Below are positions 45,003-53,754 of a stretch of DNA of 56,979 nt, in pieces. Both the position numbers and the translations under genes were made by a program. The DNA is from Armatimonadota bacterium. GTDB taxonomy: Bacteria; Armatimonadota; Armatimonadia; Armatimonadales; Armatimonadaceae. The stretch spans positions 1 through 56,979 of the forward strand of contig JAYUUO010000035.1 in NCBI GenBank assembly GCA_043754515.1. The letters are read 5' to 3'. The notes under the pieces are model-generated. The model worked only from the letters and a program-made list of their open reading frames with translations, had not been told where the DNA came from and ran no database searches. Numbering within the stretch: position 1 is the first letter of the stretch; the number at the start of each line of letters is the position of its first letter.

Positions 45003-45965
45003 ATGTTGTCGTCACGAACCTTACTCGCCGCCTTCACTTTGTCCGCCGCACTCATCGCCGGATGCTCCCCCGCCGCCGGTGGTAGCGCGACGCCGCCTGT
45101 CGTGCCGGTAGTCGCGGCATCCGCGACTCCGACCATCTCCCCCTACGGGTTTGACGCTACCCGCTCCTTTAGCGATTTGAAGACGCAGGTGGATTTCGGC
45201 CCACGCTACTCCGGCTCGGACGGCTACCCGAAGATGCGCGACTGGCTACAGAAGTCACTCTCCGATGCATCGGGTATCCCGGCGAAGCGGCAAGATTTTT
45301 CCGCGAAGCCGGGCGCGAAGACGTTGCCGATGAGCAATATCTATGTGCAGTTCAATCCGGGCGCGAGGACGCAGGTACTGTTATGCGCCCACTGGGATAC
45401 GAGGCCGACCGCCGATCAGGAAGTCGACCCTGCTAAGAAGAAGATGCCGATCCCCGGAGCGGACGACGGTGCGAGCGGGGTCGCGGTACTTCTTGAAGTC
45501 GCGCGGGCGTTCAAGGCGAAAGCCCCGACCTGTGGCGTCCAAATAGTGTTCTTCGACGGCGAGGACTACGGACCGGGTGAGGCACAGATGTATCTGGGTG
45601 CCAAGGTATGGGCTAAATCCGCCCCGCTCCCGCAACCGACCTACGCGATTCTGATTGACATGATCGGCGACAAGAGCCTGCAAATCTACCGCGAGCAGGC
45701 GAGCGAATCGAAGGCACCGGAGATCAACGACAAGGTCTGGAACGCCGCCGCCGCGCTGAGGGTGTCCGGGTTCGAGAACACAGTGAAGTACGGAATATCG
45801 GACGATCACATCCCTCTCCAGGAGGCGGGTATAAAGGCGATTGATCTGATTGACTTCGACTACGGCTCCTGGCACACGCTCGACGATACACCGGACAAGT
45901 GCTCGCCCGACTCGCTCCGCGCGGTCGGCGACGTTTTGTCGAAGGTTGTTTACGACGAAAAGTAA
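45003..45965 (+). CDS. M28 peptidase / glutaminyl-cyclase-like lipoprotein
   Basis: LIAGC lipobox; AHWDTRP, GADDGASG, DGEDYG, SDDH, WHT. Confidence 0.9.
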   Translation: MLSSRTLLAAFTLSAALIAGCSPAAGGSATPPVVPVVAASATPTISPYGFDATRSFSDLKTQVDFGPRYSGSDGYPKMRDWLQKSLSDASGIPAKRQDFSAKPGAKTLPMSNIYVQFNPGARTQVLLCAHWDTRPTADQEVDPAKKKMPIPGADDGASGVAVLLEVARAFKAKAPTCGVQIVFFDGEDYGPGEAQMYLGAKVWAKSAPLPQPTYAILIDMIGDKSLQIYREQASESKAPEINDKVWNAAAALRVSGFENTVKYGISDDHIPLQEAGIKAIDLIDFDYGSWHTLDDTPDKCSPDSLRAVGDVLSKVVYDEK

Positions 45966-45984: not shown

Positions 45985-46021
45985 ACGCGCCCCAGCGGAT
46001 TCGCACCGGGGCGTGTTTTTT
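45985..46021 (+). terminator. intrinsic terminator
   Basis: ACGCGCCCC/GGGGCGTGT stem followed by a T-run. Confidence 0.7.
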
Positions 46022-46051
46022 CGTCCCCGCCTCCGCCCCGAAAACATTCCG

Positions 46052-46100
46052 AAAAAACTTTAACTTTTTCTTTAGCAAACGGGATGACCTGCGCTATACT
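46052..46100 (+). promoter_or_regulatory. sigma70-like promoter with UP element
   Basis: A/T tracts, then TTAGCA (46072-77)-N17-TATACT (46095-100). Confidence 0.65.
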
Positions 46101-46106
46101 GTGCTT

Positions 46107-47310
46107 GTAGGCGCGAATCACGTCCCGACCCGTCGGGACGTCTGCCAGGAAATTACTAACCTAGCGACCGGCAAATCTATTTCGTCGTGCCTCCGACGTT
46201 CGTACAGAAAGGAACATTCCATGTTTCACTTTTGGCAAAATAACACAACCCTGCCGCAAGAGAACCTCACGGAACCAGCCCTGTACGCCGTCGCCTTAAC
46301 GGAGGGGATTCGCGTCCTTTCCGATGGTATCTGCCCGCAAGGGCAATACCCCACCTCGCCACTCTCCACCTCGGAGTGTGCTGAAGCGAAACAGGGTTCC
46401 GGCATTGCCGGGACCACGGTCAGAAACCTGACCGGGATCATTACGAGCGTGCTATCGGGTAGTGGGGCATCAAGTAGTTTGATGCACCATCGCGCCAATA
46501 GCACGCGTGGCAACCCCGTTGGCAACAACGCCGGAGGGACCAGAAGCGTCGCTTATCTGCTTACAGGTAAGTCGCTTCTCGGTAACGATACAGGATTGAA
46601 CGAGAGCTCAATCTCCGGCAGCCGGCGAGAAGCCCGCGCAATGACAGCGACCGCGATTCGTAGCGCGTCGTTTGTAGCCGCGATAGGCACGTCGTATAAG
46701 AGCGACAGCCGCATATCACAAGGCTAGGAACACGCCGCGAGCGTGGAGCGCGAACGGTATGCCCTTGAAGAGGCCACCGTTCGGTCCGTTTCGCTAGCAA
46801 CACACAGCCGGAAAAGGTGCGAACTGAGTCGGCGCAGGACGGAAGGCGTCTGCGTTTCAGCAAGCGACACTTCCGCAATGTTCATCGGTGAATCCGGAGC
46901 CTATGGGCTTCCTCACCGTGACATCACATCATAACTGTGACCGATTATCATTTCGCGCCGGGAAAAGCAGTGCCGGTTTCTCCTCACCAGAGAGCCGCGC
47001 AGCCCTCCCCCGGACATAACGAGTAGAGCAGAAAACAAACCCATATCCGTTGGCGTACGTCCGCGTACCCGGTTCGTCAGGAAACTGAATCCTCCCCGCT
47101 TCGCAGGGGGCAGACTGTCTCCATGGCACTGGCACGAAATACATCGGTTCCCCCGTGTGTTTCGTCCGGTTCCGATGTTACCGGTTGCGCACTATATTAA
47201 CGGGCTGATCGTGACGAAAGTATAGGAGGCACTCTGCCTCCGATTCGCACGCGAAGCCTGAATCATGACGCACTTGGCTTGACCGTTTGTTTTTCTGCTC
47301 CCGATGATCA
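46107..47310 (+). ncRNA. candidate large structured ncRNA (~1.2 kb), family unrecognised
   Basis: Near-continuous stems, e.g. 46120-41, 46326-50 (GCAA loop), 46417-34, 46447-506, 46517-30 (GCAA loop), 46542-79, 46751-83, 46809-75, 46878-924, 47134-65, 47225-41; long-range helices 46270-84/46391-401 and 47026-40/47285-300; boundaries approximate. Confidence 0.7.
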
Positions 47311-47383
47311 TACAGAAAGTTCGGCCCTATGCCGGGGTTTGCCCCCGCCGCGCCGCCTTCCTGTAGAGAGTGGATGACGACTA

Positions 47384-47989
47384 ATGAACGCTATATTGAT
47401 TCGCGCGCGGCGCGGCGATGTCGCCGCGCAGGATGAGTTGAGGCGGGCACTGCGCCCGCGTTTAGAGTCGCTGGCCGGGTACTATGCTGCCCGCACCGGC
47501 ATGGATTCCGCCGACCTGTTGCAGGAGGCGTGGGTCGCCGTATTCGAAGCACTGCCGGGAATTGACCTGACCATTGGTACGCCGACGCAGTACCTGTTGA
47601 AGCATGCGCGGTGGCAGATATTGGACCACATTCGGTGGAACAAGCGGCGGTCGCACGAGACGCTCGATGATCTGGTGGTGGAGACGCCTGAGATCGCCGA
47701 GAACTCGTTCGGCACTGCCGTCAACCGCCCTGCGGCGTCGGAGGAGGTGGAGACCCGGATGATGATCAGCGACCTGGAGGGTCGGTTGAACGCGAAGCAG
47801 AAGGAGATCCTGCACGGGTTGCTGGACGGCTTCACCTGGAGGCAGATCGGTGACTCGCTGGGTTGCACGTCGGCGAACGTCGCGTACCACGTGCGCGGCA
47901 TCCGACAAGCCTACTCGGAACTGTCGGATGCGCCGGAAGGCGTTCCCGGCAGGACGGGGACCCGGCCCGCGCTGGCGGCACGGGCATGA
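47384..47989 (+). CDS. orphan ECF/SigH-like sigma factor
   Basis: RARRGD..A, DLLQEAWVAV, ILDHIR (region 2); LNAKQKEIL...G.TWRQI...LG (region 4). Confidence 0.9.
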   Translation: MNAILIRARRGDVAAQDELRRALRPRLESLAGYYAARTGMDSADLLQEAWVAVFEALPGIDLTIGTPTQYLLKHARWQILDHIRWNKRRSHETLDDLVVETPEIAENSFGTAVNRPAASEEVETRMMISDLEGRLNAKQKEILHGLLDGFTWRQIGDSLGCTSANVAYHVRGIRQAYSELSDAPEGVPGRTGTRPALAARA

Positions 47990-48026
47990 CGTGGGCTGTT
48001 CTCTCAAAAACGGTGACAGAGGTCAC

Positions 48027-48071
48027 AAACAAAACGCGCCAGGCGAATGATTCGCCCAGCGCGTTTTGTTT
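48027..48071 (+). terminator. intrinsic (possibly bidirectional) terminator
   Basis: AAACAAAACGCGC-ca-GGCGAA-tga-TTCGCC-ca-GCGCGTTTTGTTT. Confidence 0.8.
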
Positions 48072-48584
48072 CCCCGTCCTGCAAACCAGAGGGAAGCAGA
48101 TGCCGTAGTGCGGACGCAACCGCCCCCGTCTCTTTCCGAACAATGCCTTTACTAAAGTTATACTAACAGTCGGCGCGTTCCGTCCCGCGTCAAATACGAG
48201 AGGATGAGTCCGTAACTGCTCCCGATGAAAACAGTTTGCCCTGTCCCGTATGCCAATTCAAACAACTGTATTCGGAAAAGGTTCGCGAGATTTTAGCCCT
48301 TTTTCCGGGGTGGATTATTCCGACTCCACGCTTCTTTCCGCCGTTTGGTAGAAATGTCTGCCTCGTGCCGGTCGTGTCAACACATGCTTATCGGCTTCCA
48401 GCGAACGCCACGGATCCGGGTCGCGCGTCGGCGTCGGACTTGCCCCACGATGCGGTCACGGGACATCGCGTGGCACCCGTCCGTTCCGGGTATTCCTAGA
48501 TTCAGACAATCGGAACCTGACGATCATAGCCCATCTATTCCTGCCTGCCGCGCCACGATTATGTGCGTATGGCGTTGATCCGAC

Positions 48585-53057: not shown

Positions 53058-53169
53058 GTGTTCACGATAACACGCGGGATACCCCGCTCGCAACGGCGCG
53101 GACGGTTCGCCGCGCGGCGGGCGAAAAATAATCGAACAAACGCCCGCCGCCTGTACACTAACGGTGCGA

Positions 53170-53754
53170 ATGAACGAGATAATTAACGCTCTATGGGAGA
53201 CCACACTCCGGAAGCGGCTACGCGCGGGCGATCGCGCCGCGTTCGAGTTGGTGGCGAACGAGCGGTACGCCGCCGTCTACCGCCAGGTGTACCATTTGAC
53301 GGGCGGCGACGAGTCCCGAGCGGCGGATCTGACACAGGAGACATTCGTCGCGGCATGGCAATCACTCGAGACGTTCGACGGGCGATCCGCGATAGGCACC
53401 TGGCTCCATGTCATCGCGACACGGGTCTGGTACCGCTCCGTACGCGGGGAGAAACGCCAGGCCGGGCAGGTCTCCCTCGCCGACGCGCTCGGGGAGCTTC
53501 TCGCCGACACCGGCACGGTTGATCCGGCACGCCGCGTGACAGGCAATGCGGCGCGGGAAACGCTGGAAGCCGCCGTTCATGCCCTGCCGCCCGCGTACCG
53601 CCGCGCCGTTCTCCTGTTCTACCGCGAAGAGAAGCGTTATCACAAGATAGCGGACACGGAGAAAATCGCGCTCGGCACCGTGAAGTCGCGGCTCTCCACG
53701 GCGATCAGGATTTTGCGCGCGCGACTCGCGAACCGAAAGGAAGAACTGCTTTGA
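53170..53754 (+). CDS. ECF RNA polymerase sigma factor
   Basis: GDRAAF, DLTQETF, TWL..IA, LPPAYR, GTVKSRL. Confidence 0.93.
   Translation: MNEIINALWETTLRKRLRAGDRAAFELVANERYAAVYRQVYHLTGGDESRAADLTQETFVAAWQSLETFDGRSAIGTWLHVIATRVWYRSVRGEKRQAGQVSLADALGELLADTGTVDPARRVTGNAARETLEAAVHALPPAYRRAVLLFYREEKRYHKIADTEKIALGTVKSRLSTAIRILRARLANRKEELL

Follow-up and report, generated by a model that had tools for sequence, protein, structure and literature searches.

What is the roughly 1.2-kb, densely folded region that sits between an M28 peptidase gene (45003–45965; Pfam M28) and a gene for a sigma-70-family factor with regions 2 and 4 only, on a contig of an Armatimonadota bacterium? The window, by which we mean the whole stretch of DNA that was analysed (56,979 nucleotides), had been described from its letters alone, and this preliminary description proposed that positions 46107–47310 specify a large non-coding RNA on the scale of GOLLD, OLE, ROOL or MISL, possibly of a new class. 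A structured plus-strand RNA without a known family, whose helices show signs of covariation, is borne out by our analysis; the free-standing gene comparable to GOLLD, OLE or ROOL is not, its place being taken by the leader of a sigma-factor gene that includes an ORF. The region is a conserved cis-regulatory mRNA leader containing a translated upstream ORF (uORF), not a new class of large non-coding RNA. Positions 46107–47383 (+) very probably constitute the ~1,277-nt 5′ leader of the sigma-factor mRNA, in which the uORF has a regulatory function.

Boundaries, distribution and expression of the leader

The peptidase gene is closed by a hairpin followed by a T run (45987–46021, +), which was read directly from the sequence, was not called by the terminator scan, and separates the gene from the leader. 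Downstream of this hairpin lies a promoter (46071–46100, +) that consists of the −35 element TTTAGC, a 17-nt spacer and the −10 element CTATA within TATACT; it was identified by a sigma-70-type match, by the occurrence of the motif in relatives and by a peak in element spacing, and the predicted transcription start is near 46107. An A/T tract 5′ of the −35 element (46052–46069, +) resembles an UP element and may act as such; similar tracts precede the promoter in the loci of the family and in many loci of the phylum. No canonical terminator was detected within the leader before the sigma gene, the ribosome-binding region of which (47366–47373, +) was recognised from the sequence and from the GGAGAG-type sites in the family loci. 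The gene itself (47384–47989, +) encodes a 201-aa alternative sigma factor that is recognised by Pfam Sigma70_r2, weakly by GerE, and by TIGR02937 above the cut-off, with no named NCBIfam subfamily above its cut-off. A strong inverted repeat (48027–48071, +; 22-nt arms, 91% complementary), conserved in position in two relatives, ends the sigma transcript.

Several additional features were noticed in the vicinity. Directly 5′ of the sigma ribosome-binding site, an insertion of ~55 nt (~47310–47365) folds as a hairpin and is missing in three homologs that cover the site. On the 3′ side of the sigma terminator, a non-coding block (48146–48264) with a palindrome near 48148–48158 is ~72% conserved in two relatives and is possibly a regulator site or a small RNA. 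The window also encodes a second, typical ECF sigma factor (53164–53754) that is unrelated to the leader and is followed by a short ORF, which may be its anti-sigma. A competence-type (SigH/ComX) role was considered and dropped because no competence gene is present among the 53 proteins scanned. A literature search at the level of titles and abstracts, mainly of freely accessible papers, gave no description of this sigma factor, its motif or its leader.

The sigma gene is present in 21 of the 32 genomes of the family and in 84 of the 301 genomes of the phylum. The order promoter–leader–uORF–sigma is the same in 66 of 98 sigma loci compared (20 of the 22 places in the family, two fragments being omitted, plus 78 others, with 90 of the 92 places from the phylum search covered). 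Among 70 leaders measured across the phylum, which range from ~190 to 1,277 nt, the leader analysed here is the longest, and the corresponding leaders of its relatives are ~190–1,100 nt long. This length ranking, together with the folding and the RNA contigs at 46155–47043, underlies the assignment of the interval as a leader. Other genera possess independently long leaders (L010, L022, L008 and L114; 880–1,100 nt) with little sequence similarity to the one described here, which suggests repeated expansion.

The long form itself is narrowly distributed. A DNA search detected it in 2 of 40 relatives, both from the same genus and with the same gene order, and a metagenome scan added 2 contigs, for five long homologs in total. 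A covariance model of the middle domain of the leader found no match outside the genus (29 loci, 32 genomes), viral contigs contained no match to the region, and no second copy was found in the genome, so that the region is single-copy. Given the shared promoter, the frame-conserved ORF, the lack of a canonical terminator, the single copy and the corresponding leaders of the relatives, a stand-alone non-coding RNA is unsupported.

One metatranscriptome run (X7) contains contigs identical to 46155–46408, 46380–46847 and 46874–47043, plus one over 47783–48161 that reaches into the conserved block 3′ of the sigma terminator, and none over the upstream peptidase gene. These contigs give a weak hint of leader expression: the run comes from one study and provides contigs only, which give neither strand nor ends nor level and may stem from DNA carry-over. 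The gaps in RNA coverage at 47044–47782 do not constitute evidence. Three other runs (X18, X8 and X6) are probably DNA and contribute strain variants only.

Folding of the leader and conservation of its ORF

All 11 stem and tetraloop strings quoted in the preliminary description occur at their places, as does the helix between 47026–47040 and 47285–47300, and no family of related stems was found, in agreement with the view that the region is not a repeat array. Nor does the region belong to a known RNA class: Rfam 15 yields no match at the gathering score in the window and none in the region up to an E value of 10, and ARAGORN finds neither tRNA nor tmRNA in the window. As anticipated, the leader folds better than its dinucleotide shuffles, with plus-strand z of −8.3 for 46107–46727 and −3.9 for 46728–47383 (−5.4 and −5.0 for sub-domains), compared to +1.0 for the upstream peptidase gene, +1.2 for the downstream DNA and −3.1 for the sigma coding sequence. 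Four 300-nt windows of the leader have z of −4.3, −7.0, −2.4 and −3.7, and 3 of 107 random genome windows reach −4 or lower (mean −0.3). The earlier statement that almost every 30–60 nt folds is overstated, given that 150-nt windows yield z of −2 to −5.9 only with starts at 46025–46550 and −1.9 to +2.0 with starts at 46625–47300. There are 13 perfect stems of at least 7 bp versus 7.9 ± 2.5 in 60 shuffles (maximum 14), and 3 GNRA-capped stems on the plus strand versus none on the minus strand (shuffle mean 0.75, maximum 3). The claimed preference for the plus strand holds in all four leader segments by shuffle z, but in only three of the four 300-nt windows.

Conservation of the structure was assessed on an alignment of only five related sequences, too few for rigorous covariation analysis. 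Three segments have a consensus fold better than that of their column shuffles (z −13.4, −5.5 and −5.0), and in them 16, 10 and 20 pairs, respectively, are doubly changed, values reached by 0 of 25, 1 of 40 and 0 of 40 shuffles. The covariation check suggested in the preliminary description thus gives an excess of double changes in three segments, at the depth of five sequences and with a poorly conserved 3′ domain. The strongest local folding, corresponding to the first of these z values (alignment columns 250–700), is in a multi-stem domain inside the uORF (46436–46648, +). The middle, non-coding structured domain (46803–47016, +), delineated by double-change pairs, the conservation profile and a duplex scan, includes a nearly invariant block (about 46812–46877), has 9 doubly changed pairs out of 64 versus 3.5 ± 1.3, and was found in 3 of the 32 family genomes, all from one genus. 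The 3′ domain (47026–47300, +) is closed by the A-rich/U-rich helix mentioned above, which is kept in all five homologs; its interior is poorly conserved: of 101 consensus pairs, 64 are disrupted in one or more homologs, and cleanly varying pairs are fewer than in shuffles.

The preliminary description overlooked the promoter, the ribosome-binding site of the uORF and the uORF itself, a conserved ORF of 168 codons (46221–46727, +) that begins with MFHFW, spans about 40% of the region and was identified by frame conservation, dN/dS and protein search. In all five homologs, this frame is open for 160–168 codons, with no premature stop at about 25% divergence, and all five indels inside it are in frame, versus 6 of 47 outside. 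The dN/dS of the uORF is 0.52–0.79, versus 0.08–0.10 for the sigma gene, with changes spread across all codon positions, and its synonymous divergence is below that of the sigma gene, which points to constraint at the RNA level. The maintenance of the frame, the weak constraint on the peptide and the low synonymous divergence, taken together, suggest that selection acts on translation as such and on the RNA sequence more than on the peptide.

The uORF product matches no Pfam or NCBIfam family. A protein search gathered 19 uORF products, the one from this locus included, in which SPLS(A/T)SEC is among the most conserved blocks; the 12 closest matches are, with one exception, near 165 aa long. 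A tryptophan is present at residue 4–7 in 16 of 20 family uORFs versus 2 of 45 others. Across the phylum, a uORF with a ribosome-binding site follows the promoter motif in 66 of the 98 loci (64 by a stricter rule, under which the lengths are 15–168 codons), and these uORFs have no sequence in common. The ribosome-binding site of the uORF (46208–46213) and its start codon are enclosed by a helix seen in predicted folds (46201–46207/46281–46287; 46201–46287, +), which is invariant in all five homologs and hence lacks covariation support.

The promoter motif and a candidate regulon

The motif TTTAGC-N15-19-C/G(G/T)ATA is found upstream of the sigma gene in 69 of the 98 loci, and several of the loci that lack it are second copies, while one has no DNA upstream. 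The −10 element is TATACT or TATAAT in the family, and a TATAAT-like hexamer lies inside the spacer in several other lineages, which suggests that two sigma factors recognise the promoter; the promoter of the leader is probably read by both the housekeeping sigma and the sigma factor encoded here. The genome contains TTTAGC and CGATA at a spacing of 17 nt 21 times and at 16 nt 6 times, with 0–5 occurrences at each of the other spacings (5 to 40).

Beyond this locus, the motif occurs at about 24 further sites in the genome, before HflX, MutS2, Thg1 and tRNA genes among others, and a one-base variant precedes RsgA and MetRS. We examined 38 motif regions of the genome (31 with TTTAGC and 7 with the TTTAAC variant). 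Eleven of these lead to HflX, MutS2 with an Smr domain, Thg1, an RNA ligase that scores below the Pfam cut-off, RsgA, MetRS and five tRNA loci, these being raw counts. Behind another four lie genes for two GNAT proteins, an ABC exporter and an HNH nuclease, and the other 23 lead to AAA ATPases, DUF4291, DUF444, DUF7873, other families, or nothing recognised. The motif is absent before five ABC-F-like and two release-factor genes. For rtcB, a contig end truncates the upstream DNA, which is therefore uninformative, and no RIO kinase gene was detected in the genome.

Several motif sites merit separate mention. Two of these, L083 (G000:C128:3772, +) and L088 (G000:C174:21236, −), share similar sequence 3′ of the −10 element, have no recognised gene directly after them and no Rfam match, and may represent short RNAs or regulon leaders. 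An ATPase-like gene that is apparently split across two frames (90 aa, then 187 aa) follows a motif variant at L097 (G000:C9, about 14802, descending). At L074 (G000:C75:1-2550, −), the motif is followed by three tRNA-Leu genes, a WGR plus DNA-ligase gene and tRNA-Arg, an arrangement that may be an operon for repair and tRNAs.

Occurrence of the motif follows that of the sigma gene. Summed by hand over the 21 family genomes with the sigma factor, there are 255 motifs versus 31 for the reversed control; in 10 genomes of a genus in which the sigma factor was not found, the same hand tally gives 13 versus 13, this genus being one lineage with small genomes, and related genomes not being independent in such a comparison. 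One genome, G003, has 27 motifs and no sigma match, at 82% completeness. Phylum-wide, a strict motif match was tallied by hand in 48 of the 84 genomes with the sigma factor, a figure that counts its own promoter, versus 24 of the 217 without. This co-occurrence suggests that the sigma factor reads the motif.

A predicted long-range switch and its counterparts in known systems

Codons 47–49 of the uORF (46359–46366, +), within the conserved SPLS(A/T)SEC stretch, form a predicted anti-Shine-Dalgarno (anti-SD) element complementary to the sigma ribosome-binding region at 47366–47373, as indicated by pairing probability and conservation. In whole-leader ensembles, the anti-SD:SD helix has a probability of 0.98 here, 0.95 in G001 and 1.0 in L103; in G002, it is 0.02 in the free fold and 0.97 when the 5′ part of the uORF is masked. 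Of 17 other family leaders, 8 have the element as the best partner of the SD, and masking of the uORF there lifts SD unpairing from 0.00–0.16 to 0.22–0.39; in the leader analysed here, masking changes SD-to-start accessibility only from 0.29 to 0.33. Most uORFs of the family contain a similar motif, which is not restricted to a single reading frame, and the complementarity beats that of shuffled uORFs (p ≤ 0.05) in 5 of 20 family leaders and 2 of 45 others. When the interior was shuffled, the helix survived in 15 of 25, 5 of 20, 10 of 25 and 22 of 30 trials, which implies that the interior fold is unnecessary for the helix prediction. A test of matched versus mismatched motif and SD gives p 0.016, which we do not count as covariation because the motif was picked by matched energy. 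The anti-SD element can alternatively form a local hairpin, and the best alternative partner of this stretch in all five homologs is the block 46812–46850 (−25 to −32 kcal/mol, bulged, p 0.03–0.09), which may thus be a decoy strand.

We favour, with some reservation, the interpretation that the leader senses ribosomes and controls a self-amplifying sigma factor of translation stress, similarly to whiB7/wblC and here probably via translation; judged from these models, a translational anti-SD mechanism appears rather likely overall. The hybrid promoter would yield a basal transcript. With few ribosomes on the uORF, the element at codons 47–49 would base-pair with the ribosome-binding site of the sigma gene, 1 kb further downstream, so that the sigma factor would be poorly translated, and the folded domains between the two would keep both ends near. 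When antibiotics, uncharged or damaged tRNA, or cold cause ribosomes to slow down, stall or form queues along the long, structured uORF, these ribosomes would cover the anti-SD element or make it pair with the invariant block instead, which would open the sigma start. The sigma factor would then transcribe its own promoter and the regulon, creating a positive loop. We derive the direction of this switch from the regulon, not from the folding.

This mechanism does not account for the 1.28-kb length of the leader in this genus. A bolder version, to which we assign a low likelihood, is a kilobase RNA sensor in which the uORF serves as a test track for ribosome speed or queuing, a three-way switch of the anti-SD element (local, with the invariant block, or with the SD 1 kb away) drives translation of a self-amplifying ribosome-rescue sigma factor, and the invariant domain is a second input or a lasting functional RNA.

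The strongest competing explanation, itself unlikely in our judgement, retains the leader and the uORF and differs in the output, which would be transcription attenuation as in whiB7/wblC: the U-rich tract at 47285–47295, behind the long branched stem, would act as a terminator except when disrupted by untranslated uORF RNA. At −15 kcal/mol or below, 22 of 64 leaders contain a terminator-like hairpin with a U tract before the sigma gene, versus 2–7 in three shuffles, and the 200–450-nt leaders of relatives often carry a terminator, so the output may be transcriptional there. For the long form, this explanation has on its side the preservation of the U tract with the closing helix in all five homologs and the better coverage of the leader than of the sigma gene by RNA contigs; however, contig coverage is unable to place RNA ends, no simple hairpin lies 5′ of the U tract here (best −1.3 kcal/mol), and a terminator/antiterminator switch is predicted in only 4 of 29 leaders tested, with the reverse in 1.

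Less probable still is that a stable structured RNA, corresponding to the leader or to its 3′ non-coding half, accumulates in addition and has a role of its own, such as binding a ligand, a protein or the ribosome, or forming an oligomer. The size of the leader, far above that in relatives, would fit this possibility, as would the signs of covariation in the helices and the 60-nt nearly invariant non-coding block, although the latter is explicable as the alternative anti-SD partner; the RNA contigs over 46155–47043 in one metatranscriptome, with none over the upstream gene, point the same way. Against it, the leader RNA was found in one genus only (3 of the 32 family genomes) and in none of the viral contigs, is single-copy and always directly 5′ of the sigma gene, and its best-folding part falls inside the ORF. 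Finally, we consider it very improbable that the ORF encodes a small trans-acting protein (an anti-sigma or co-regulator) in a two-gene operon with incidental folding, as might be suggested by the strong ribosome-binding site, the near-constant length among the closest matches and the early tryptophan, in view of the dN/dS, the lack of shared sequence at 15–168 codons across the phylum and the reduced synonymous divergence.

The favoured translational switch has partial counterparts in several known systems. In the translational attenuators ermC, secM-secA and mifM-yidC2, a conserved stalling peptide is encoded next to the regulated gene. The leader described here resembles these in the predicted release of a sequestered ribosome-binding site by a ribosome that occupies the upstream ORF; unlike in these systems, selection on the peptide is weak, 656 nt separate the end of the uORF from the gene, and the strands of the helix lie about 1,000 nt apart. 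In Escherichia coli rpoS, a distant segment of the long leader of a stress sigma factor blocks the ribosome-binding site and is opened by Hfq-bound small RNAs. A long stress-sigma leader with a distant blocking segment is common to both cases, whereas the blocking segment here lies inside a dedicated uORF.

With GOLLD, ROOL and OLE (PMC12286853), the region shares size, many stems and, as far as five sequences indicate, covarying helices, and differs from them in the lack of an Rfam match, the conserved ORF, the fixed position before one gene, the lack of matches in viral contigs and the narrow distribution. SigR of Streptomyces is likewise an alternative sigma factor linked to translation-inhibiting antibiotics (PMC4921905) and, according to PMC7157823, a thiol-stress ECF factor activated by WblC; the sigma factor described here, in contrast, scores below the cut-offs of named NCBIfam subfamilies and has a different promoter motif.

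The homologous series of leaders from ~190 to 1,277 nt, which apparently begins with a short terminator switch and ends with a very long, structured switch at the level of translation, provides a natural series for the growth of large regulatory RNAs. If the proposed mechanism is correct, the predicted promoter motif and regulon are directly testable, and the motif-led DUF4291, DUF7873, DUF444 and other uncharacterised genes become candidates for ribosome or RNA repair.

The closest parallel is the whiB7/wblC leader, which has a uORF of variable length and sequence, positive feedback and induction by translation stress (PMC10274678). According to PMC10274678 and PMC7157823, the leaders have in common a distal promoter, the variable uORF, an AT-rich element 5′ of the −35 element and positive autoregulation, which is predicted for the leader described here. 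The WblC regulon, as reported in PMC7157823 and PMC12421871, includes HflX, GNATs, ABC transporters, synthetases and tRNAs, the same gene classes that are found under the motif here. Nevertheless, this leader is not a member of the whiB7/wblC attenuators because a sigma factor that has its own promoter motif takes the place of the WhiB protein and because no canonical terminator is present; the 168-codon uORF, the 1.28-kb length and the predicted long-range SD-blocking helix are further differences. If our interpretation holds, a poorly studied phylum has independently built a WhiB7-like circuit for translation stress and intrinsic resistance from a sigma factor.
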